Shown: positions 15,727 through 32,651, counted from the first letter of the stretch. The stretch: 64,000 nucleotides of DNA from an uncultured Chitinophagaceae bacterium (GCA_963695165.1 CAVOGF010000004.1:304326-368325); one strand, 5' to 3'. Made by a program: numbers and translations. Notes: generated by a model from the sequence alone, not told the origin.

Positions 15727-17031
15727 TTAAGCCAACTCAGGATGTTTCATCAATTCCTCAATCTCTTCCACTGTAATTGGAATATTTTTCATCAGGTCGG
15801 TATTACCGGTTTTAGTGATCCAAACATTGTTTTCAATGCGAATCCCCATTTGCTCTTCTTCAATATAAATACCGGGTTCCACTGTTAGCAACATACCAGG
15901 TTGAATCGGTTCAGTTCTGGTACCAAGATCATGCACATCAATACCTAAATGATGTGAAATGCCATGATACAAATATTTTTTATAGGCAGGATTTTCCTTG
16001 TCTTCATTTTTAATATCGGATTTTTTAAGCAGCCCGATCTTTTGAAAAATCTTTGTTGCTTCGTCGCCTACCTTTTCGGTATAATGCACCAGGGTAATAC
16101 CAGGCTTTAATAAGCTTTTGGCATATTCATGCAAATGCAGGCATGCATTGTACACTTCCTTCTGGCGCTTGGTAAACTTTCCGTTTACCGGAACGGTGCG
16201 GGTAAGATCTGCCGCATAACCGCCATATAACGCGCCAAAATCCATGAGTACCAATTCTCCGGATTTACATTCTTCATTGTTAAAAACATAATGCAAAGTT
16301 CTTGCCCGGTCGCCACTTGCAACGATGCTTGCATAAGCTTCACCACTGGCGCGGTTGCGTAAAAACTCATGGAATATCTCGGCTTCAATTTCATATTCCA
16401 TCACACCGGGCTGTATAAATTGCAAGAGCCGCCTAAAGGTTTTTTCCGTAATGTCAATTGCTTGTTGGGTTACTTCAATTTCATATTTGGTTTTGATCGA
16501 ACGCAACCGTTTCATGATGGTTGCAGCCCGCTCATAATGATGGAGCGGATACCGTTGTTTCATCTGCTGAACAAAGCGGTAATCGCGGGTTTCCACCAAT
16601 GGAGCATCTTTACGGTCATTTTCATTTGTATTCAGATAGATTTTATCAGCCAAATGGATCCAGGATTGCAAAAGCGCATCCAGCGCATCGAGCCATACTA
16701 TTGTTTCAATGCCTGAAATTTCAGTCGCTTCTTTTGCACGCAATCTTCTGCCATTCCATTTTTCTTTTAATTCATTCGGGCGCATCAATACCAATACTTC
16801 GCGGTATTTATGATCAGGATTGTCGGGGAATAAAACTACCATCGTATCCTCTTGTTCAATACCGCAAAGCCAGTACAGATCACTGTTTTGTTTAAATTTA
16901 TATAAAGCATCCCCATTCGCAGGCACTTCATCATTGCTATTAAAGATGGCTATACTGCCGGGTTTCATTTCTTTCCTGAACCGCTTCCTGTTTTCAGAAA
17001 ACAGTGTTGGATTAATGGGTAAATGTTTCAT
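15727..17031 (-). CDS. Xaa-Pro aminopeptidase (M24B family)
   Basis: C-terminal M24 fold motifs DFGALYGGYAADLTRT, HGISHHLGIDVHD and VEPGIY. The start is placed at the ATG at 17031 (MKHLPINPTLF). The longer listed ORF runs through a perfect hairpin. Confidence 0.85.
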   Translation of the reverse strand: MKHLPINPTLFSENRKRFRKEMKPGSIAIFNSNDEVPANGDALYKFKQNSDLYWLCGIEQEDTMVVLFPDNPDHKYREVLVLMRPNELKEKWNGRRLRAKEATEISGIETIVWLDALDALLQSWIHLADKIYLNTNENDRKDAPLVETRDYRFVQQMKQRYPLHHYERAATIMKRLRSIKTKYEIEVTQQAIDITEKTFRRLLQFIQPGVMEYEIEAEIFHEFLRNRASGEAYASIVASGDRARTLHYVFNNEECKSGELVLMDFGALYGGYAADLTRTVPVNGKFTKRQKEVYNACLHLHEYAKSLLKPGITLVHYTEKVGDEATKIFQKIGLLKKSDIKNEDKENPAYKKYLYHGISHHLGIDVHDLGTRTEPIQPGMLLTVEPGIYIEEEQMGIRIENNVWITKTGNTDLMKNIPITVEEIEELMKHPELA

Positions 17032-17094
17032 AGAAATAATTGAGATTGCAAGATACAGGAATAATCCTTTTTTGAGGAAGTGCGTTTGGAATAA

Positions 17095-17128
17095 AAACCA
17101 GGAAGGTTTTTTGAAACCTTCCTGGTTT
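17095..17128. terminator. perfect 15-bp hairpin at the left edge of the cassette array
   Basis: aaaccaggaaggttt-tttg-aaaccttcctggttt. It lies downstream (minus sense) of the cassette array and upstream of the aminopeptidase gene. Its right half plus flank is repeated at 17195-17228. Confidence 0.5.
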
Positions 17129-17431
17129 ATCAAATATTAAAATGCGGGGGCGTTTCCAATTTTTAGACAAAACATTCAACAATGGAATAAAATAAGGTTT
17201 TTGAAACCTTCCTGGTTTACCAAATACTGTACTTTATGCAGCGATATGCCTTAGTAAAATAAATTCCAGTTGTTGGGCTGTGATGGAAGCATCATTTTTA
17301 ACTTTATAGTGAGCATTTCAAAAGTTTATTTCTCCAGTCTTTTATATTAAAGCGGAAAGCCAGCGTCTTTGCACAAAAGCAGTTTTATCTGGTTGTTTTT
17401 TTTAATTGAGGGGTAACGATGCTTATGTCCT

Positions 17432-17613
17432 AAAAGAAACACAGGCTGAAACGCCTGCCGCCAAAAGGTTTCAGCCGCTATGAAAAAAAAAGGCGCCCCG
17501 CCTGCTTCAAAATCCTACAACCGCTTTACGACAAATCCATAAGTACCTGCTTTTCCCGGTTTCGTTCAACAAGGGTTTCATTTCTTGTTCGTTGGGCAAA
17601 ACGAAATCTTTAG
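17432..17613 (-). repeat. cassette-associated composite repeat, copy A (partial: part of middle module plus core)
   Basis: Aligns with 22120-22300. Core at 17558-17608. Ends 14 nt from the higA stop. Confidence 0.85.
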
Positions 17614-17626
17614 TGATTGCCTGCCG

Positions 17627-17926
17627 TTAAGCAACTTTTGTGCTGATTGATTTTATTGTATTGAGCATTGCGCTTTTAGCGGACATCTCTTCTTCAATGT
17701 CAAAATCGTCTTGCAAACCAAGCCAAAATTTAGCGCTATTGCCAAAGTATTTACTAAATCTAATGGCTGTGTCAGCCGTAATTCGTCTATTGCCTTTTAC
17801 TATTTGGGAAACTCTGGTCTGTGGAATTTCTATGTCTTTTGCAAGCTTATACGCTGATATATTAAGAGGTTTTAGAAATTCTTCAATGAGTACTTCGCCA
17901 GGGTGAATATTTTTGAGCTTTGCCAT
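17627..17926 (-). CDS. higA: HigA family antitoxin (XRE-type HTH)
   Basis: MAKLKNIHPGEVLIEEFLKPLNISAYKLAKDIEIPQTRVSQIVKGNRRITADTAIRFSKYFG is a classic HigA/VapI sequence. It lies 11 nt downstream of higB. Confidence 0.9.
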   Translation of the reverse strand: MAKLKNIHPGEVLIEEFLKPLNISAYKLAKDIEIPQTRVSQIVKGNRRITADTAIRFSKYFGNSAKFWLGLQDDFDIEEEMSAKSAMLNTIKSISTKVA

Positions 17927-17937
17927 ATTTGAAAAAA

Positions 17938-18218
17938 TTAATGATAATCGATTATTTTAACTTCGGAAACATTGCCCGAATTCCATTTGAAAACAATCCT
18001 CCATTGATCATTTATCCTAATGCTGTAAAAGTCTTTGGAGTTTCCTGATAGCTTTTCAAGTCTATTGGAAGGGGGAATTCTAAGTCAGCCAGGTCAACAG
18101 AGTTATTTAGCATTCTTAACTTCCGTCTTCCGATATTTTGAATTTCATTTGGTAATTTCTTGACTCTATCGCCATTCCATACTTTTTCTGTTTCTGAATT
18201 TCCAAATGATACTATCAT
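17938..18218 (-). pseudogene. higB: HigB (RelE-fold 'killer') toxin, frameshifted in a homopolymer
   Basis: Listed ORF 18012-18218 gives MIVSFGNSETEKVWNG...DLEFP. After the G5/C5 run at 18071-18075 another frame reads NRLEKLSGNSKDFYSIRINDQWRIVFKWNSGNVSEVKIIDYH*, a typical HigB C-terminus ending at 17938. Confidence 0.8.
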
Positions 18219-18710
18219 TGCTACTGTCTAAAGTTACTAACGTCAAAAGTAAGCAAATGATTTGAGTATGCAAAATCTCAAAATAAAGGAAAGCTGATGG
18301 CTCGCAACTGTTTCGGGCTTGGCGATCGGGCGTACTTAGAAGCACTAAACTGTCAACCAGCAAGAAACCACGAAGGCCATACGCTTGTCCAATGAGGCAA
18401 GCGGGCAAAGGATCTTGTGCACCGGCTTCACCCCAAGACGCCAGCTAAAACCCTTGACGGGATGCGGTTTCAGCATCTCGTTTCAAAAGAAGGCTCCCTG
18501 CCTGCTCCGGGGCTTTGCGTTGGGCGGCGGATAACCTGCACCAAAGTTTAGCCCAGCGCTAAAATAATAGAAAGCAGGAAAGTTCATGTTTGTACTTCAG
18601 CCCGCCTGATGCAGTACCCCCTGTTGAACTAAACCTACGGTAGCCTTCCGCAACTATCCGTAAATTTAGCGGTTACTAAAACAATTTTATTATGACAACG
18701 AAAAAAAAAT

Positions 18711-18853
18711 CGACGGAAGAACTGAGGCACAACAAATATCTCAATATCCTACAACCATTTTACGACAAATCCATAAGTACCAGCTATTCCCAGGTTTCGT
18801 TCAACAAGGATTTCATATCTTGCCCGTTGGGCAAAACGAAACCTTAGTAATTA
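18711..18853 (-). repeat. cassette-associated composite repeat, copy B (lacks middle module)
   Basis: cgacggaagaactgaggcacaacaaatatctcaa is joined directly to tatcctacaacc...gggcaaaacgaaaccttagtaattag. Core at 18793-18843. Ends 6 nt from the hepT stop. Confidence 0.85.
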
Positions 18854-18859
18854 GTAGTT

Positions 18860-19198
18860 TCAGTTTTCCTTAAGTACACCTTGTATTTGGTCATAAAGCT
18901 CAGGAATTTTGTTTTTGAACACGTCCCAAACAATTGAGTAATTCACTCCCATATAGTCATGAATTAGCCGGTCTCTCATTCCGCCTATGTTTTTCCATTG
19001 AATTGTGTTCCATTTGACCTTAAATTCCGCCGGAATTTTCTTTGTCGCTTCACCAATAATTTCCAAACTTCGCACAACAGCCCGCTTCAAAGTCTCGTTA
19101 TCAAGAAAATCTTCTTTTGATAACCCCTTATTGACCGAAAGCAAATATTCGCATTCGTCCGATATATGCTTCAGAAATTCGACTGGCTTCTTAGACAT
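18860..19198 (-). CDS. hepT: HepT-like (DUF86/HEPN) toxin
   Basis: HEPN R-x4-H motif in GGMRDRLIHDYMGVNY. It overlaps the upstream nucleotidyltransferase gene by 8 nt. Confidence 0.85.
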   Translation of the reverse strand: MSKKPVEFLKHISDECEYLLSVNKGLSKEDFLDNETLKRAVVRSLEIIGEATKKIPAEFKVKWNTIQWKNIGGMRDRLIHDYMGVNYSIVWDVFKNKIPELYDQIQGVLKEN

Positions 19199-19493
19199 AC
19201 AGAACGCTCTTTAGTATCTTAGGACCGATATGTGGGCTTAAACCATTTTTAGTAACGATTTCAACTTTCTCATTTTTAAAAAGGTTCTCAAATATATCGT
19301 AAACAGCCATGTAGTTGTCAAAATTTTCTTTGTCAGGTTCAAAATCAATCAGTAAGTCAATGTCACTGCCTATTAATTGCTCGTCACGTAAATAAGAGCC
19401 AAATAAACCAATATTAGATACGCCATATTTTGACAAGTCAGACTTGTGAGTTTTCAGAACAGAAATAATATTTTCTTCGTTGTCATGCAACAA
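19191..19493 (-). CDS. mntA: MNT-type nucleotidyltransferase antitoxin
   Basis: GLFGSYLRDEQLIGSDIDLLIDF matches the minimal nucleotidyltransferase GS-x-R...D-x-D motif. Confidence 0.85.
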   Translation of the reverse strand: MLHDNEENIISVLKTHKSDLSKYGVSNIGLFGSYLRDEQLIGSDIDLLIDFEPDKENFDNYMAVYDIFENLFKNEKVEIVTKNGLSPHIGPKILKSVLYV

Positions 19494-19675
19494 AGATAAA
19501 ATTACTTCGGCGATTTGATACTGTGCAGAAAAATTACTGCCAACGCCTCCGGTTTGCTGTCTGTAGCGGCATTCAGCGGTTCGTCAGCCCCAATATAGTG
19601 ATCATGTTTATTGATTTTCTGTTGCTGAATGACTTACGTCCGCCGCTAATGGCAGCAAACCGCATTTTTTAACTA

Positions 19676-19901
19676 AAAAAATCGCCGGAAGAATAAGGTA
19701 CAACAAATACCTCAACCGTGCCTGTCGTGAAGTTAATGGATTTGCCGAAATTTTTCAACGTTTTGAACATAAAGATACACGGGATAAAACGCCCGCCGCC
19801 AAAGGGTTTCAGCCGATATGAAACTACGACATAAGTACCTGCTATTGCCCAGTTTCTTTCAACCAAGGTTTCATTTCTTGCCTTTTGGAAAAACGAAACC
19901 C
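19676..19901 (-). repeat. cassette-associated composite repeat, copy C (internal ~45-bp deletion, degenerate core)
   Basis: Aligns with 22030-22165 and 22215-22294. Core at 19851-19900 reads agtttctttcaaccaaggtttcatttcttgccttttggaaaaacgaaacc. Confidence 0.8.
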
Positions 19902-19991
19902 ATTTGTAGCGATTTCCTCGTCCGTGTAAATACTACGTCTCCACCTCTTAATGTCGTCAACATAAAATGCAAGTGTGGCTTTGGTTGTCAT
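19842..19991 (-). CDS. 49-codon ORF (hypothetical) whose 3' third is encoded by repeat copy C
   Basis: The ATG at 19991 gives MTTKATLAFYVDDIKRWRRSIYTDEEIATNGFRFSKRQEMKPWLKETGQ*. It is the only ORF in the 19902-20118 cassette. No homology is recognised, so it may be fortuitous. Confidence 0.25.
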   Translation of the reverse strand: MTTKATLAFYVDDIKRWRRSIYTDEEIATNGFRFSKRQEMKPWLKETGQ

Positions 19992-20118
19992 AAAATTCTA
20001 AAAAACGTCAAATTTATATAGTGGTTTCCCAAATTAGTATGCGATAAATATATGGATTATTTGCCGCAAATAAGCGGTGAATGATTTGATTTTCACCGCA
20101 GGAAAAGGCAGAGAATGG

Positions 20119-20187
20119 CTCGGTTTCGTTCAACAAGAGGTTCATTTCTTGCCTGTTGAGCAAAACGAAACCTTAGTTATTAGCGTT
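20119..20187 (-). repeat. cassette-associated repeat, copy D (core only)
   Basis: ctcggtttcgttcaacaagaggttcatttcttgcctgttgagcaaaacgaaaccttagttattagcg. The stop codon of the DHFR-like gene (20173-20175) lies inside its TTAGTTATTAG tail. Confidence 0.85.
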
Positions 20188-20745
20188 CGTTGTTTTTTCT
20201 GATATCGGTTCATAATAAAATACTGTTGCACCGGAATGTAGGGATTTTGTCTTAGCGAGTTTGAAAACAATCCTGTCCTTTATTTGGTCAAACAATGGCA
20301 GCCCTTTTCCTTCTACGACAGGATGAATACAAATTTGAAATTCGTCAATAAGATTACTATTTAACAGTTGAATGATCAAACTCCGGCTTCCAACCAAAAT
20401 GTCCTTTCCTGGTTGTTGTTTGAGTTCCAAAACTTCTTCGTCAAGAGGTCTGTTTGCAAGTTTTGCACTCTCCCAGCCTGTGTCTTTTAGTGTGTTGGAG
20501 AAAACAAGTTTTTGAATTTTGTCTATTGAAATTGCAAAGTCGTCCATTGATTTTTCACCAGAAGGATTTTTCAATAATGATTGCCAAAATTGCATGAGTT
20601 GGTAGGTTGTCCGACCATATAAAATAATTCCTGCATTATCTATAAGTTCAGAATAATGTTGATGTAGTTCCTCATCAGCAACTCCGGCCGTATGGTCGCA
20701 AAATCCGTCGAGTGTCATATTGATTGCAGCAATTAGTTTTCTCAT
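20173..20745 (-). CDS. dihydrofolate reductase family protein (RibD C-terminal domain-like)
   Basis: MRKLIAAINMTLDGF...ILYGRTTYQLM...DILVGSRSLIIQLLNSNLIDEFQICIHPVVEGKGLPLF is the typical pattern of this family. Confidence 0.8.
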   Translation of the reverse strand: MRKLIAAINMTLDGFCDHTAGVADEELHQHYSELIDNAGIILYGRTTYQLMQFWQSLLKNPSGEKSMDDFAISIDKIQKLVFSNTLKDTGWESAKLANRPLDEEVLELKQQPGKDILVGSRSLIIQLLNSNLIDEFQICIHPVVEGKGLPLFDQIKDRIVFKLAKTKSLHSGATVFYYEPISEKTTNANN

Positions 20746-20794
20746 ATTCTAATTTTTAGTCGTCTGTATTACACGGGGGCGTCCGTTCACCCTA

Positions 20795-21015
20795 CCGTGA
20801 AGTTAATGGATTTGCAGAACTGCTGCAACGTTTTGAACGTAAAGAATACAGGGCTAAAACGCCCGCGGCCAAAGCTTTAGCCGCTACGAAAAAAACAGGC
20901 GCCTGACTGCTTCAATATCCTACAACCGCTTTATGAAAAATCCATAGGTACCTGCTATTGCCCGGTTTCGTTTCATTTCTTGCCCATTGGGCAAAAGGAA
21001 ACCTTAGTTATTATT
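20795..21015 (-). repeat. cassette-associated composite repeat, copy E (lacks first module; 11-nt deletion in core)
   Basis: ccgtgaagttaatggatttgcagaactgctgcaacg...cccggtttcgtttcatttcttgcccattgggcaaaaggaaaccttagttatt. Ends 10 nt from the mazF stop. Confidence 0.85.
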
Positions 21016-21025
21016 GGTGGTAGTT

Positions 21026-21352
21026 TTAGGCCACAAATGTTTCTTGAATTACGTTTTTCACTTTCTCAATTTCCTTGTCGGTCAATGATTCAAAACGTTT
21101 AACAATTCTTCTTCTGTCAATTGTTCTAATTTGGTCCACCGCAATCCAACCTTTAGTAGCTTTATGTTTAACTTCAACTCTTGTCGGGTACGGTTTTGAG
21201 CTACTTGTCATTGGTGCAACTACGACTGTCTGCAAATACTTGTTCATTTCGTCTGGCGACAGCACCACACAAGGTCTTGTTTTTTTCATTTCGCTTCCAA
21301 TCGTTGGATCAAGGTTAACCAATACGATTTCATATTGATTTATTTGCTCCAT
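21026..21352 (-). CDS. mazF: MazF/PemK family type II toxin endoribonuclease
   Basis: YEIVLVNLDPTIGSEMKKTRPCVVLSP...VVVAPMTS is a typical MazF/PemK sequence. It overlaps mazE by 13 nt. Confidence 0.9.
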   Translation of the reverse strand: MEQINQYEIVLVNLDPTIGSEMKKTRPCVVLSPDEMNKYLQTVVVAPMTSSSKPYPTRVEVKHKATKGWIAVDQIRTIDRRRIVKRFESLTDKEIEKVKNVIQETFVA

Positions 21353-21588
21353 TCTTCAAAGTTTTCATCTTCAAAAACATCGTCCATCAAAAGATGGTCA
21401 TCACCGTTTTCATGCATCTTTTTAAACGCTTTCTCCCAATTTTTTCGTGGTTCTGGTTTTGGCTTTAAAATGATATAATCTTTTTCAAGAATTAATTCAA
21501 CTTTGTCACCGATACTGTATTTTTCAAGAATGGTCTTGGAAAGCCTAATTCCTTTTGAGTTTCCAATGTTGATGATTGAAAGTTCCAT
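21340..21588 (-). CDS. mazE: AbrB/MazE/SpoVT family antitoxin
   Basis: MELSIINIGNSKGIRLSKTILEKYSIGDKVELILEKDYIILKP is a swapped-hairpin AbrB-type fold, followed by an acidic C-terminal tail. Confidence 0.85.
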   Translation of the reverse strand: MELSIINIGNSKGIRLSKTILEKYSIGDKVELILEKDYIILKPKPEPRKNWEKAFKKMHENGDDHLLMDDVFEDENFEEWSK

Positions 21589-22029
21589 AATTTCCAGTTT
21601 TGTTATTACAAAGTAATTACAATTTTCTCAGCCTTCCAAATTATCAAAATAGATTTTCGTTTCGCAAATAGTGTCCGGAAAAATTACCGCTAAGATGGGT
21701 AAGGGAACTCATAGGCAAAACGAAAAAGAAATCAGCCATTTAATACTTCAAAGCATGGCTAATCCTGGGTTACAACCCTCACTCAACAACGGAAAGCTCT
21801 AATCCTACACGGGAACTCAGCTCATTTACTTGTCAGTCAAAAATAACTCGAAAGCTCCCACAAATCTACTATGTTAAATGCGGGGGCTTTTAGTGGGGGC
21901 TTTCGGCTATTGTTCTTAATGTTGAATTAGCTAGCAGCTTTTCTTTGCAACTACGATTTATGTTAGCTTGTTTACACCTCTTTAAAATGTAAGATAACTC
22001 TATCATAAATCGTCGACGATGGTAAGACT

Positions 22030-22313
22030 GCCGGAAGAACTGAGGTACAACAAATACCTCAACCGTGCTTGCCGTGAAGTTAATGGATTTGCCGAACTGC
22101 TGCAACGTTTTTAACGCAAAGAAACACAGGCTAAAACGCCCGCCACCAAAAGGTTTCAGCCGCTACGAAAAAAAACAGGCGCCCTGCCTGCTTCAATATC
22201 CTACAACCGCTTTACGACAAATCCATAAGTACCTGCTATTCCCGGTTTCGTTCAACAAGGGTTTCATTTCTTGCCCGTTGGGCAAAACGAAACCTTAGTT
22301 ATTAGCGGCAGCC
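22030..22313 (-). repeat. cassette-associated composite repeat, copy F (most complete, ~285 bp)
   Basis: It contains all three modules: 22030-22062, 22063-22196 and 22197-22313. Core palindrome at 22244-22294. Confidence 0.85.
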
Positions 22314-23217
22314 CTGTTCTTTGTTGCCCGAAACCTGCTTAGTTATAATTAGCCCCTTTGCATTTTCTCAAGCAATAAGCATGTTCAAACTAATTTCATT
22401 CTCTGTCCACAGAAGGCTATTTAGAATAATTAAAAGTAATGGAAATTCTTTGTAAAGATATCCAAACGATAAAGCCGCTTTTTATAAATGTTGTTCAGCT
22501 TCTTCAGCATTTCAACACACTATTTTAGCGGCTGATACAGATGGCTCTTAATAGAAATAATTTTTATAAATAAAGTAATTACAGCACCTACAACTCCACT
22601 CCAAAAAATCAAAAACTTATAATATACATATCGGGAATTATATTTAATACTTTTCGGATCCAAGTCCTCGTCTACACGTCTTTTTAGGAAGTCATTAAAT
22701 CTTTCTTAGGAATTAATAACATGAAAATTATTGTTGACACGTACACAATAATAAATATGACTAACAAGCTATTCATGGTAAGCGATTTATTTCATTTCGT
22801 TATTTTCTTACAACATTACTAAAGACTTCTTTTATTCTAAATATTTACTTAAATATAGTAGTTTCTCCAACAGTTTTATATTCAAGTTATACCGGAAATA
22901 AGAACAGTTTTTTTTCCTCAACTGTCAGCTAACGTTTATCAATTACCCACTTCGGGTCTTTCAAAAAGGGTTGCCCATAACTCAAATATATGCGAAACTT
23001 TTTACCACTCTTGCTTTTTTTAACAAAAATATTATTGATTTCCAAATGGTTAAACCGGTTTTGCGAAAGACATATTTAAAATTTATAGCTTTCGTAAAGC
23101 CAACTTGTATTTTTCAATCCTCCTCCAATATCTTTCCAAATTTCTGCCCTTAAATTTCAAATGCGTTTTATCCGGCACAACAACCAGCTAAAACGCATTT
23201 GAAGGATGTTTTTGAAT

Positions 23218-23300
23218 CATGCTGAATAGAATTCCCAACAGTACAAGAGTGCGACGCAACGAAGACCCACAAAGGTTTGCAGCCGGGTACAAAAAAACCA
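23218..23300 (-). repeat. ~100-nt intergenic element, copy 3 (inverted, more diverged)
   Basis: The reverse complement tttttttgtacccggc...ggtcttcgttgcgtcgcac...gttggga...ttcagc aligns with 25048-25152 and 51386-51494. Confidence 0.55.
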
Positions 23301-23533
23301 ATCTCTGGAATTTAGGGATGAATAATATTAGGCAAACGACATTCTTAATTTTTAATAAAATATTCAACCACTTTGTGGTTGTTTCTCGCATCTATTTTAT
23401 ACCCCGGATTTCATCCGGGGCTACTCACATTTTAATCCCTTCGGGATTAAGAACGCCCCAAATAAAATCTGATGGGCGCGGCTGGAAAAATGCCGCCGTT
23501 TCCCCTTCGGGATTAAGAATACCCCACAAAAAT

Positions 23534-23553
23534 GCCCCGCTTTTGTGCGGGGC
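23534..23553 (-). terminator. GC-rich hairpin downstream of the MacA-like gene
   Basis: gccccgc-ttttgt-gcggggc forms a 7-bp GC stem. On the minus strand it is followed by ATTTTTG. It lies 68 nt past the stop at 23621. Confidence 0.5.
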
Positions 23554-23570
23554 GATTCCAATTATTTAAA

Positions 23571-23620
23571 CGAAACATTCAACAATTCAGCAATTAAACA
23601 ATTAATCAATTCAACAATTA
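23571..23620. repeat. short-period repeat (CAACAATT words)
   Basis: cgaaacattcaacaattcagcaattaaacaattaatcaattcaacaatta. Confidence 0.8.
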
Positions 23621-24990
23621 TCAACTTTTCTTAAACTGCTGAATGAGCTGCTCCTTAGGCACCACTTTTACCTTTGTACTATCCTGCAATTGTTTGCTCA
23701 CCACATCATAAGGGCCTGTTACTACTTCATCACCGGCTTTTAAACCGTGTGTAATTTCTATATAATTAATATCCTGGATATCTGTTTTAACGGGCACCTT
23801 TCGAACGATACCATCTTTCTGAACCACAAAAACAACTTCCTCCATATCATCATCAGAAGATACGCTTGCAACCTGGCTGACATTGTTGTTATCATGTCCT
23901 TTTTTTCCATGTCCGGAGATTTATTGTTCTTCTTATCGCGGGTTGTAACGGCATTTAAAGGCACCGTAAGCGCATTGGTATGCGTCTTGGTTTGAATATC
24001 CGCGTTTGCGGTCATATTAGGACGGAATGGAAAAGGTTTTCCTTTACCCAACAGATCTTTATAACTATCCGATAAAAGCCGCACATGCACCTGGTAGTTG
24101 GTAACAGTGGTGGAAGAAGATCCGCCTGAAGACTGTAAAGCAATCAACGGGTTAGCGATCTTATATACAACTCCTTTGAATTTGCGGTTACTATACGCAT
24201 CCACTTCCACAATGGCGCTATCGCCGATGCGCACTTTAGGAATATCATTTTCACCCACATCCACCTGCACTTCAATGCTGCCCAGGTCCGCGATACGCAT
24301 CATTTCGGTACCGGCCATTTGCGCTGTACCCACTACCCTTTCGCCTTTTTTCACCGCCAGTAAACTTACAACGCCATCCATAGGCGCCGTGATGGTTGCA
24401 CGGTTCACATCTTTACTCGCGCGGTTCAGGCTTGCCATTGAACTTTGTACCAAAGCCTGGTTGGCTTTAATGGCATCCGATGCGGCCTGATAATTGGCCC
24501 GTGCCGATAAATATGCCTGTTGCGCCTGCTCAAATTCCGATTGTGAAATCACTTTTTGATCCAGTAAGGTTTTTTGCCGGTTATATGCCGCCTGTGTCTG
24601 ATCTAATGTCGCTTTTAATGCTTCCAGCTGCGATTGAGAATTAGACACCTGCGCTTCCGATTGGGAAACAAGCGCTGCGGCCTGGTCGCGCTGGGATGCA
24701 TAAATATCAGCATAAATTTTAGCAAGCACCTGCCCTTTTCTTACCGTATCGCCTTCAGCTACGGTAAGCTCCACAATTTCGCCGGAGATATCCGGGCTTA
24801 CCTTTACTTCCACTTCAGGATAAATCTTACCACTGGCGCTCACGGTTTCAATGATGGTACGATCGGCCGCTTTTTCCGATGAAACTTTTGTGCCTTCGTC
24901 TTTTCCAAAAACGCCCGCCTTACTCAATGCAACCATCGCTATTACCAGCACGATAAGAATGCCGATGATCCATTTTAATTTTTTACTCAT
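23621..24990 (-). pseudogene. efflux periplasmic adaptor (MacA/HlyD_D23-like), frameshifted in a T7 run
   Basis: The 410-aa ORF 23758-24990 loses similarity after ...SPDMEKK. Across the T7/A7 run at 23900-23906 the other frame reads EKKGHDNNNVSQVASVSSDDDMEEVVFVVQKDGIVRKVPVKT... and continues as ORF 23621-23845, the normal C-terminal beta-domain. Confidence 0.8.
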
Positions 24991-30200: not shown

Positions 30201-30459
30201 ATGTTTTTTCTAAAGAAGACTGGTTTAAAACCATTTTGTTACATTTTACAAAATTTACTTTTCGGTAACAGTTCTGGGTGGCAGTGATGTGGCACTCCAT
30301 AAAAAAATCCGTAAGCCGAATGTAATACAAAAGTAATTCAAGACCTATAAACGGTTTTATAATATCAACTCTTTTTACAAGGGCTATCAAAACCTTATAG
30401 AATTGTTTTCTTTAAAATAAAATTTTTATCCATCTTATCAACCATTATTTTTGCATCGA

Positions 30460-30640
30460 ATTTGGTTTCTCCGCCTCAGGCGAAGAATTAAAAGGGAAGA
30501 CCGGTGTAAGTCCGGCACTATCCCCGTAGCTGTAAATGATACCTTTTAAAAAAAGGAACATCTTAAAAAAAATAGTCACTGTCTGTAAAGGATGGGAAGG
30601 CTTTAAGATGCATCATAAGTCAGAAGACCTGCCCGGTTCC
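30460..30640 (+). promoter_or_regulatory. cobalamin (B12) riboswitch
   Basis: Conserved core TTAAAAGGGAAGACCGGTGTAAGTCCGGCAC (~30488-30518), CCCCGTAGCTGTAA, and a B12-box-like AGTCAGAAGACCTGCC (30618-30633). It lies directly upstream of a TonB-dependent receptor gene. Confidence 0.85.
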
Positions 30641-30766
30641 ATTATTTAATCGCTGAGCTTTCGGGTGAAAAGCCGGAGATGTAATTTGTCTTACTGCAGA
30701 AGGCTTATTTCATTTCTACTATTTTCATTGGAAGCTCACTCCTACAATCACATTTTAAACCGGAAG

Positions 30767-32651
30767 ATGAGCATGAAGAAAATTATTTACAGTTTATTAG
30801 CCCTCAGTTTTTCATACGCAGTATCAGCGCAGGATTCCACACAAAACAATTATCTCGAACAGGTAGTGGTAACAGCCACAAAATACCCTGTAAAACTGCG
30901 GCAAACTGCCAGGCTCGTAACCATTATTACGCAGGAACAAATAGAAAAAAGCGGCGGCAAAGATTTAGCCCAACTGTTGAACGAGCAGGCCGGAATTGTT
31001 GTCAGTGGCGCCAACAGCAATTCTGGAAAAGACAAGGCCGTTTACATCCGCGGCGCTAAAAATGATTATACATTAATACTGATTGATGGCGTTCCCGTGG
31101 CGGATCCTTCCGGTGTTGGCGGCGCTTTCGACATCAGGCTTCTGCCATTAGAAGGCATTGAAAGAATTGAAATACTTAAAGGAAGTCAATCTACTTTATA
31201 TGGTTCTGATGCGGTGGCAGGGGTGATTAATATCATCACCAAAACAAGCGGCAATAAAAAGATCGCATTGGCCGGCGGAGCATCGTATGGAAGTTATAAT
31301 TCCTTCAATGGAAATGCAGGTATCAACGGTCATACTTCCATTGTAGATTACAACTTTAATTACAATTATGCAGCAACAGATGGTATTTCAGAAGCAACCG
31401 ATACCACGGGTAAGGGAAATTTTGATAAAGACGGTTTTATCAAACAATCTTTCAATGGATCCTTGTCATTTAAAGCCGGGGAAAAATTAAAGATCTCACC
31501 TTATTACCGTTATTCTTATTATAAAGGCGATTTTGATGCGGATGCTTTTACCGATGGCAATAACAAGTTTGATTACCTGCTCAACAATACCGGCGCCATT
31601 GCAACTTATCAATTACCCAAAGGAAGCATTACAGCCAATTACGGTTATTCTTTTGCAAAAAGAAACTACACCGACGATTATGGCAGCTATGGATTCAGGG
31701 GACGCTTTCAAACAGGTGATTTATACATGAATCAAAAGCTGAATGACCAGGTGCAATTATTAGCCGGCGTCAATCTGCAAAGCTATCGTTTGCTGGATAC
31801 TACCTTGGAGAAAAAAAATCCTGAAACATCCATTGTCAGCCCTTATGTATCTTTTTTAATCAATAGTGGCAATGGCGTAATGATGGAAATCGGAAGCCGG
31901 TACAACCATCATTCCCGCTTTGGAAGTTATTTTACTTATGATGTCAACAGCGCATACCAGCTCAATGAAAAGATCAGGTTCTTTGCGCATGTTTCCACAG
32001 GATTTAAAGCGCCTTCGGTAAGCCAGTTATTCGGCTCTTACGGGGCCAATCCCGATCTGAAACCGGAAAAATCAACCAGCCTGGAAGCCGGAGTACAAAC
32101 AAACTTCCCGGACAATAAATTAACATCTGACGGCTACGGCATTCAACCGCGAAATCAAAGACCTGATCGCTTATATCGGCAATTACCTGGTAAATGTGGA
32201 TTTCCAGCAGGATAAAGGCATAGAACTGGAAGCCATTTTTAAACCCAACAGCAAATGGAATTTTAATGGCTCCTACACTTATTTAACCGGCGTTATTCAA
32301 CAAACAAGAAATGGAAAAGACACCAGCTATTTCAACCTGATCCGCCGTCCTAAAAATGCAATAACAGCTATGGTAGGTTACCAGGTTACCAATAAATTTT
32401 ATATCAGCGCCACATTCCAGAGCTTTGGCAACCGAACCGACCTGTTTTTTGCGCCTCCTACTTATAAATCAACAGAGGTGGATTTAAAAGCTTATGCTTT
32501 ACTGAATGTTTATGCAGAATATAAACTATGCAAAAACAGGATCAATTTATTCGCGGATGTGAAAAACCTTACTAACAGTTCGTACACCGAAGTGTATGGT
32601 TTTAATACACTGGGAACTAATATAAACGCAGGTATCCGTTTCAAACTATAA
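30767..32651 (+). pseudogene. TonB-dependent receptor (BtuB-like), frameshifted
   Basis: The ATG at 30767 gives MSMKKIIYSLLALSFSYAVSAQ, followed by a plug domain (VVVTATK...). ORFs 30665-32215 and 32196-32651 lie in different frames. Near 32120-32130 the second frame reads LTATAFNREIKDLIAYIGNYLVNVDFQQDKGIELEA. The C-terminus ends ...GIRFKL. Confidence 0.82.

Follow-up and report, generated by a model that had tools for sequence, protein, structure and literature searches.

Some members of the IS91 family of insertion sequences (IS) carry a tyrosine-recombinase open reading frame (ORF) upstream, as described in ISfinder and TnPedia. Cassette recombination sites are known to receive mobile DNA in a site- and orientation-specific manner, the recipients being entered by IS1111-attC group insertion sequences and group IIC-attC introns. 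An association of group II introns with attC is also documented (PMC7923331). On the transposon side, the closest precedents are a mini-IS91 of 89 bp of terIS and 82 bp of oriIS, which transposes in trans (PMC13181058), and IS801, which has many right-end truncated derivatives (PMC3189936). On the side of the arrays, they are sedentary chromosomal integrons and the clusters of attC sites lacking an integrase, or CALINs (PMC4889954, PMC9024848); according to reviews, integrons have been detected in Bacteroidota, where complete ones are rare. Here we describe a region of a 64,000-nucleotide (nt) stretch of DNA, hereafter the window, from an uncultured Chitinophagaceae bacterium (GCA_963695165.1 CAVOGF010000004.1:304326-368325), in which six copies (A-F) of one repeat alternate with toxin-antitoxin (TA) and other small genes. 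The region is very probably a decayed, integrase-less integron-like cassette array, the recombination sites of which were invaded by an IS91-family element.

The six copies lie in one orientation on the minus strand between 17433 and 22305 (Table 1), and all recognisable genes between them are on the minus strand as well, most of them confirmed by Pfam. A 35-nt core pattern of the repeat has four matches in the window against 0.00 expected, and a 14-mer has seven against 0.75; a pattern search of the rest of the 64 kb found no copy outside the array. An earlier reading of the sequence alone (the sequence-only reading) had placed six co-oriented copies at essentially these coordinates. It was right about the existence of copy B and wrong about its left edge, which is really at 18623. 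It had also stated that the minus-strand genes end at the repeats, and this agrees with Pfam and with the stop positions: the gap between stop codon and repeat is 6-12 nt for higA, hepT and mazF, and the RibD_C frame extends 10 nt inside the repeat. The RibD_C product has homologues (80-96% identity) throughout Bacteroidota, most of which end in ...TTNR*. The further statement that the 64 kb encode no integrase holds too, as tblastn and Pfam on 44 large ORFs detected neither a tyrosine recombinase nor an IS91 transposase in the window.

All copies are truncation or deletion variants of a single mosaic sequence. On the gene strand, its conserved part has a sharp start, (Y)AATAACTAAGG, followed by two hairpins, a conserved TATGGAGTTGTCG and a terminator-like hairpin. 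A search with a degenerate core pattern returned 125 loci, 53 in contigs of one genome per species and 72 in metagenomes, nearly all of them from Chitinophagaceae or relatives and many at contig ends; the 72 metagenome loci come from this general pattern, as a subfamily-specific 26-nt pattern had zero metagenome matches. Across these loci the core, which is about 60 nt long, turned out to be the end lying 3' of the transposase gene (the oriIS side) of an element of about 2.3 kb. At about 20 of the 53 genome loci, tblastn places the core 150-220 nt past the 3' end of a convergent ORF, the arrangement being full or partial. This ORF consists of Y2_Tnp and Zn_Tnp_IS91 (E 1e-56) and scores 422 bits on NF033538, the NCBIfam model of IS91-family transposases, against a cutoff of 125. 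Ahead of it lies a Phage_integrase/SAM_4 ORF, that is, an Xer/IntI-like tyrosine recombinase. Read on the transposase strand, the intact element is made up of the terIS end, the tyrosine-recombinase gene, the Y2 HUH transposase gene and an oriIS-side end of about 200 nt. In one Niastella genome, copies match perfectly for more than 2 kb and are sharply bounded by AATAAC... and ...GTTCAAC; the far end proper of the element reads ...GGCTACCGTAGGTTTAGTTCAAC. In window copies B, C and F, the left module corresponds to the first codons of the element's recombinase gene, read in antisense. Since copies of the repeat are continuous with the transposase and recombinase genes, the repeat is the oriIS-side end of a 2.3-kb IS91-family element; in some copies an internal deletion joins it to the opposite end of that element.

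These comparisons show copies A-F to be remnants of that element, and non-autonomous ones because no transposase was found within the window. Copy B is the sole window copy with both ends and is potentially a mobilisable mini-element. We rejected a reading of copy F as a mini-element with both ends, since the copy is truncated on the left and lacks terIS: recombinase codons make up its left part, and the actual terIS comes about 90 nt beyond. Copies A and F have a terminator-like hairpin that shows a T-run when read on the gene strand; the terminator segment is missing from D, C and B.

The two ends of the element are asymmetric. The oriIS side carries two subterminal hairpins with compensatory changes: at pair 11-43, 27 distinct sequences have GC and 26 have CG, and covariation is absent when the hairpins are paired in the alternative way. 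The terIS end carries a short palindrome, CTACCGTAG, and GTTC. Measured against the features of the IS91 family, the Y2 HUH transposase is present in the full-length relatives and not inside the window, the ends are distinct and have subterminal palindromes, and insertion is without duplication into a short target, albeit one longer than the canonical tetranucleotide. The element resembles IS91, IS801 and IS1294 in its transposase above the NCBIfam cutoff, its two ends with subterminal palindromes, GTTC at terIS, the absence of target duplication and the abundance of truncated or mini derivatives of oriIS. It differs from the family in the target, an AAC box of a 120-190-nt attC-like palindrome entered in a fixed orientation instead of a bare tetranucleotide, and in that the window copies come without a transposase. 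The window copies also resemble the miniature IS801 derivatives of Pseudomonas syringae, which are right-end fragments with variable internal stops. Those derivatives, of 229-679 nt, are mainly recombination substrates dispersed on plasmids beside virulence genes (PMC3189936), whereas the window copies are aligned one per cassette in an array. A motif near the transposase stop, GGCACACAAATTCCCCTACCC, may resemble the ISCR/IS91 oriIS consensus; none of the conclusions drawn here depends on it.

The target was determined from the flanks of the element. The 8 nt before it follow a loose consensus (C W R C N N M Y) and vary among otherwise identical copies, and the same semi-conserved 27-nt motif follows terIS in 25 out of 25 distinct intact ends. 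A profile of this motif found about 30 unoccupied sites of the form ...CWRC NNMY AAC|A NNNG TTTGGCAAAAGCGGGGCTGAC, just 3' of genes. Occupied and empty paralogous sites exist within the same genomes (L024; L031 versus L039), the empty ones reading NNMY-AAC-A and the occupied ones NNMY-AATAAC...GTTCAAC-A. Hence, insertion takes place at the AAC triplet without duplication; no target-site duplication was seen in any occupied/empty comparison.

Downstream of each motif site, at a distance of 92-115 or 158-187 nt, lies a complementary arm that ends in ...CGTTRRRY. In the consensus fold of 17 unoccupied sites, a short R box, in which (Y)AAC pairs with GTT(R), is separated by an unpaired spacer from a long stem, and 14 of the fold's 19 pairs have compensatory double changes. 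The predicted architecture of these palindromes is that of an integron attC site, somewhat longer: with 120-190 nt they are at or above the usual attC range, and they are less conserved than the repeat. Taken together, the junctions show that insertion of the intact element is site-specific, in one orientation and without duplication, at the 5' R''-type '(Y)AAC' box of attC-like palindromes. Orientation-specific insertion into cassette sites, and hence placement at the ends of cassette genes, is shared with the IS1111-attC elements and group IIC-attC introns. The enzymes are a HUH Y2 transposase and a tyrosine recombinase here, not a DEDD transposase or a retroelement, and insertion is on the R'' side. 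A physical tie between an IS91-like rolling-circle element and an integron is also found in ISCR1 and the complex class 1 integrons. ISCR1, however, resides in the 3' conserved segment, where its presumed role is to import non-cassette genes, whereas the present element targets the cassette sites. Also of note are footprint-like junctions at two further loci (L075, 1068 and 2065; L119, 1569 and 2566), where the IS end is reduced to its first ~16 nt (AATAACTAAGCTTTCG) and joins an attC-like 5' arm (TTTTGCGCAAGCGGGGC...) directly; recombination of the IS core with the similar sequence of the site may have caused the deletion.

The position of the target accounts for the position of the repeats. 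We counted a copy as standing at a gene end if a co-oriented ORF of at least 60 codons ended -60 to +15 nt from the element start, and drew random control positions from the same loci. This was so for 101 of the 128 copies with enough upstream sequence (79%), as opposed to 15.7% of the random positions, and the commonest gap was 6-15 nt after the stop. The sequence-only reading was therefore correct in supposing that copies elsewhere would also lie at gene 3' ends. The upstream genes are varied, unrelated and accessory, among them SacI endonuclease, RloB, PIN, Fic, SIR2, GNAT and DinB genes. The oriIS-side end abuts the 3' end of a gene, and is convergent with it, because the target box sits a few nucleotides past the cassette stop. 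A shared C-terminal peptide (…AANN*) encoded by the 8 nt before the repeat was considered and rejected, as these positions are the target R'' box and only two ORFs read into it.

The same palindromes are found in arrays that are free of the IS. Locus L131 has a tyrosine recombinase, then at least 10 divergent co-oriented genes, including GmrSD- and Eco57I-type ones, with eight attC-like sites, one per gene, no IS copy in the array, and housekeeping genes on the other side of the recombinase. The same recombinase stands in a complete Chryseobacterium genome (L133) beside a divergent 11-gene array with GCTAAC...GTTAGC palindromes. At L002 and L060 the order is recombinase, cassette(s), IS-occupied site. 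Comparison of these loci shows the attC-like palindromes to be the closing sites of cassettes in an integron-like array system of Chitinophagales and other Bacteroidota. Such units were seen in Chitinophagales and Chryseobacterium gotjawalense, with a recombinase of 361-418 aa of the XerA/IntI clade next to housekeeping genes; their cargo consists largely of genes that are unknown or serve in defence (GmrSD, Eco57I, a cytosine methyltransferase with SacI). As side observations, two IS91-type elements in a Chitinophagaceae metagenome-assembled genome flank an ORF for a group II intron-type reverse transcriptase (L010, 2426-3679, minus strand), and an IS1182/IS5-like DDE transposase gene directly follows an attC-like site behind an IS91-type element (L017, 281-1492, minus strand). 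It seems that IS of several kinds accumulate in these arrays.

The array-side recombinase belongs to a family widespread in Bacteroidota. The L002 protein scores 185 bits on TIGR02249, the cutoff of which is 265. Its family aligns best to archaeal XerA, matches Vibrio IntIA in two pieces only and has no counterpart of VchIntIA residues ~201-248, the integron-specific segment. Because the recombinase is below the cutoffs and without this segment, we term the system integron-like and not an integron; an IntI-type integrase with the integron-specific domain, as in a complete integron, is present neither in the window nor at L002. The IS-borne recombinase is 37-44% identical to the array-side one and shows the same split match to the integron-integrase models. 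With sedentary chromosomal integrons and CALINs (PMC4889954, PMC9024848), the arrays share co-oriented, promoter-poor TA, defence and orphan cassettes, one imperfect AAC...GTT palindrome per cassette, a divergent recombinase at one end (in the related loci) and cassette turnover. They differ in the recombinase, which lacks the IntI insert and falls below the cutoffs, and in the 120-190-nt sites; the window, in addition, has no recombinase and only remnants of sites.

In the window itself, our own arm profiles give one good and two partial attC-like sites (E 0.3-0.6); a CALIN is defined by two or more attC sites called by the attC model, with no integrase within 4 kb. The good one, at 19525-19668, folds better than 200 of 200 shuffles (z -3.8), and its R'' AAC box was lost together with the left end of the IS. 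We read the segment 18285-18640 as a partial site, an IS fragment and an isolated 3' arm. The sequence-only reading had taken the repeats for its attC candidates, which was a misplacement: the true attC-like sites are at 19525-19668 and 18500-18622, with an arm at 18296-18326, and had not been flagged.

A metagenomic relative, L057, helps to reconstruct the array. It has seven repeat copies and shares with the window, at 97% identity, the series mazE-mazF, E, RibD_C, D, small ORF, C. Upstream it has three other genes, and a different gene replaces mnt-hepT and higBA. Behind each of the three L057 copies that retain terIS there is a full attC-like site. The RibD_C cassette recurs in yet another array, L058, where homology begins 18 nt past the R' box. 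The nearest aminopeptidase relative (L054, 84% aa) has different neighbours. Cassette-level variation among relatives, which the sequence-only reading had named as a mark of such an array, is seen in the flanking cassettes of L057. In the window, a 380-nt segment (21650-22030) with a plus-strand terminator-like hairpin (21881-21905) separates copy F from the mazE promoter region; the otherwise 97%-identical L057 lacks it.

The most likely history is the following. The window array would have had the order mazEF, RibD_C, orf49, mnt-hepT, higBA, with most or all of its sites invaded. The IS would have entered the AAC boxes at most or all cassette sites. Deletions running leftwards from inside the IS would then have removed the transposase and recombinase genes, usually terIS and often the attC-like site too, leaving oriIS-side stubs of 65-285 nt, one per cassette. 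At present, the stubs would serve at most as terminators, as substrates of homologous recombination between cassettes or, in the case of copy B, as a mini-IS mobilised in trans.

Several points weigh against this reconstruction. There is one convincing attC-like site in the window and none beside copies A, D, E and F, for which invasion followed by deletion is deduced from L057 and other loci. The arm profiles score weakly in the window (E 0.3-0.6), and the segment 18285-18640, folded whole, does no better than shuffles. The attC-like label itself comes from our own alignment and not from the canonical attC covariance model. The crossover point is ambiguous within Y^A^A^C. Adjacency of recombinase and array was seen at four loci only, and the array-side recombinase, being very conserved across the phylum, could have a housekeeping role. 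Finally, the search for a full-length element or an integrase was confined to 64 kb of the source genome.

Alternatively, the IS itself might have built the array by one-ended or ori-to-ori rolling-circle transposition that captured adjacent genes, with no integron-like system involved. IS91-family elements do mobilise flanking DNA in 1-14% of events and IS801 forms right-end minis (PMC13181058, PMC3189936); the copies in the window are co-oriented, and arrays of the type IS-gene-IS also occur in Niastella (L004, L017). However, the same attC-like sites are arrayed without the IS in L131, and DNA acquired by read-through lies past terIS, whereas the tight junction with the gene is at the oriIS side. 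Each intact terIS abuts an attC-like site and not a captured gene, and the position of the R'' box already accounts for the short distance from stop to IS. We consider this explanation unlikely and retain it because recombination or ori-to-ori events between stubs may shuffle units.

The sequence-only reading proposed a cassette array in which the repeats were unusually long attC sites of a CALIN, worked by an integrase encoded elsewhere, or belonged to a different accretion mechanism. Its description of TA and orphan cassettes without an integrase stands, and the role it gave to the repeat, either as attC or as a new accretion device, does not, as the repeat is an IS end. Gene-then-repeat layout and typical cassette cargo suit such long attC sites, the core contains GTTGAAC (= GTTRRRY) and hairpins, and the predicted circle junction of the parent element folds as an attC-like hairpin. 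Against this, the repeat runs into transposase and recombinase genes at about 20 loci, copies B, C and F carry recombinase codons, and separate covarying AAC...GTT palindromes recur once per cassette in IS-free arrays. In the linear copy, AATAAC and GTTGAAC make a mere 3-bp R box. An integron attC site is an imperfect palindrome of 57-141 nt, variable in sequence, with complementary R'' (RYYYAAC) and R' (GTTRRRY) boxes and L''/L' boxes; repeats A-F are IS sequence of up to 285 nt, highly conserved, with nothing but AAC/GTT able to pair. The length of ~285 bp and the conservation on both sides of the putative crossover, which had seemed puzzling, are both explained by the repeat being IS sequence. 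That the repeats are attC sites is therefore highly improbable.

We give next to no weight to the repeat being a functional RNA of the 3' untranslated region, a terminator or a small-RNA module. It always lies 3' of a gene and co-oriented with it, has covarying hairpins and, in A and F, a terminator-like hairpin with a T-run. But its sequence is that of an IS end, and D, C and B are without the terminator segment. With Rfam, the sole match in the whole window at the gathering threshold was a cobalamin riboswitch outside the array, and matches at E<=1 within 17000-23700 did not exceed chance level. The core hairpin has G:T versus A:C pairs in a ratio of 17 to 15, which is no strand preference. 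The idea of a structured RNA was abandoned when the transposase was found, though it is possible that the terminator-like hairpin has been exapted. A classical miniature inverted-repeat transposable element with terminal inverted repeats, target-site duplications and a DDE transposase, which the short, non-coding, multi-copy repeats with many contig ends inside them might bring to mind, can practically be dismissed, as occupied and empty sites show no duplication, the ends are asymmetric and the parent encodes a HUH Y2 transposase; in offering it as an alternative, the sequence-only reading came closest to the non-autonomous mobile element, although target-site duplications are absent.

In an invaded cassette array, the interpretation that we prefer, either the HUH transposase or the IS-borne IntI/Xer-like recombinase may be the inserting enzyme. 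The predicted circle junction, ...GTTCAA|TAAC...core...GTTGAAC (GTTCAATAAC), folds as a hairpin (z -4.6) with a 6-bp GTTCAA/TTGAAC box, a spacer, a GGTTTC/GAAACC stem and an inner hairpin. The element itself, read along the transposase strand, starts with TTGAAC (= TTRRRY) and has GTTCAAC (= RYYYAAC) 50 nt from its end. It therefore resembles an inverted cassette, in the mirror-image position of a normal one. A wider proposal, which we put forward tentatively and rate at somewhat below an even chance as a whole, is that Bacteroidota from Chitinophagales to Flavobacteriales possess an integron-like platform run by an XerA/IntI-clade enzyme without the integron domain, together with a dedicated IS91-family parasite that carries a paralogous recombinase and has a circle junction mimicking attC. 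This parasite would enter the top-strand R'' AA^C in the manner of an inverted cassette, and single-strand recombination catalysed by the recombinase, instead of HUH transfer, might be the mechanism. If true, it would be a hybrid of a rolling-circle transposon and an integron cassette.

The literature that we searched, on IS91 biology, the link between ISCR1 and integrons, and group II introns in attC, described neither an IS91-type element that targets attC-like sites nor the present integron-like arrays of Bacteroidota and Chitinophagaceae; such an element appears to be undescribed there. Strict specificity for attC-like hairpins would place an IS91-family element alongside IS1111-attC and the group IIC introns as a third class of cassette-site parasite, and attC targeting gives a testable role to the enigmatic tyrosine recombinase of some IS91 members. 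The marked arrays point to an integron-like system in Bacteroidota with a recombinase that lacks the domain thought to define integron integrases, and this bears on the recognition of single-stranded hairpin sites and on the origin of integrons from Xer-type recombinases. For annotation, co-oriented repeats behind small Chitinophagaceae genes are best regarded as IS91-type stubs marking former cassette sites, neither attC nor regulatory RNA. The window itself is a decayed example, and the interest lies in the system that it indicates.

Table 1. Repeat copies, attC-like sites and cassettes of the window, and integron-like units at related loci
Feature	Location	Strand	Description
Copy A	17433-17618	-	oriIS-side fragment, 186 nt, with terminator-like hairpin; left-truncated; directly 3' of higA
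Copy B	18623-18854	-	~114 nt of oriIS side, recombinase codons 1-17 (MTTKKKSTEELRHNKYLN), 5' leader and terIS end ...GGCTACCGTAGGTTTAGTTCAAC
Copy C	19672-19900	-	Lacks first 9-12 nt of core, terminator segment and terIS; keeps recombinase 5' codons
Copy D	20121-20185	-	oriIS core alone, 65 nt; provides final two codons and stop (AAT AAC TAA) of RibD_C gene
Copy E	20795-21013	-	oriIS-side fragment; 11-nt core deletion; left-truncated beside a GAAC; directly 3' of mazF
Copy F	22030-22305	-	oriIS-side end (core, terminator-like hairpin, second hairpin) fused to antisense recombinase codons ~7-37
Seventh fragment, degenerate	18440-18500 (approx.)	-	Internal terminator and second-hairpin segment, no core; partly by eye
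attC-like site (T site)	19525-19668	-	After copy C, before mnt-hepT; 21-nt imperfect inverted arms; R' GCGTTGGCAG
Partial attC-like site	18500-18622	-	Directly after copy B terIS; 5' arm AGGGGGTACTGCATCAGGCGGGCTGAAG and matching arm ~100 nt on
Isolated attC-like 3' arm with R' (…CGCCAAGCCCGAAACAGTTGCGAG)	18296-18326	-	Upstream of higB; E 0.33, by eye
Possible attC-like 5' arm remnant (TTTTGTGCAAAGACGCTGGC)	17353-17387	-	Downstream of copy A; by eye alone; weakest part
mazE-like and mazF cassette	21026-21588	-	mazE-like 21340-21588 (82-aa ORF in MazE position, no family match); mazF 21026-21352, MazF by Pfam
RibD_C / DHFR-like cassette gene	20173-20745	-	Pfam
49-codon ORF (orf49)	19842-19991	-	3' end within copy C; L057 version 62 codons; no family match
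mnt and hepT TA cassette	18860-19493	-	mnt (MNT nucleotidyltransferase) 19191-19493; hepT 18860-19198; Pfam
higB and higA cassette	17627-18218	-	higB ~17930-18218, frameshifted; higA (HigA-type helix-turn-helix, Pfam) 17627-17926
Integron-like unit	L131 105-11119
Integron-like unit	L133 72-11086
Integron-like unit	L002 1217-5467

Two of the genes in and near the array are interrupted. In higB there is a one-base frameshift near 18080, which puts the N-terminal 68 codons and the C-terminal ...NRLEKLSGNSKDFYSIRINDQWRIVFKWNSGNVSEVKIIDYH in separate frames, so that the gene is either a pseudogene or carries an assembly indel. A HlyD/MacA-type gene (23621-24990, minus strand) has a frameshift near 23870, with its last 74 codons (MEEVVFVVQKDG...KKS) in another frame. 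As the two lie within 6 kb, both may be assembly indel errors.

Small repeats are found at either side of the array. A 29-nt direct repeat (TTTTTGAAACCTTCCTGGTTTAYCAAATA) with a spacing of 90 nt surrounds a perfect hairpin at 17090-17130 (region 17108-17226), and a 30-nt tandem pair lies at 23437-23532. A 41-nt motif (TGCGGGG.G.TTCCAAT..TTTA.AC.AAACATTCAACAAT) occurs at 17143-17183 and again at 23546-23586, 6.4 kb apart, thus bracketing the whole array. Whether these repeats mark the boundary of the island or belong to a promoter or terminator family we raise as a question only. Further along, the cobalamin riboswitch of the window (RF00174, 104.7 bits) is at 30446-30650 on the plus strand, just 5' of an ORF at 30665-32215.

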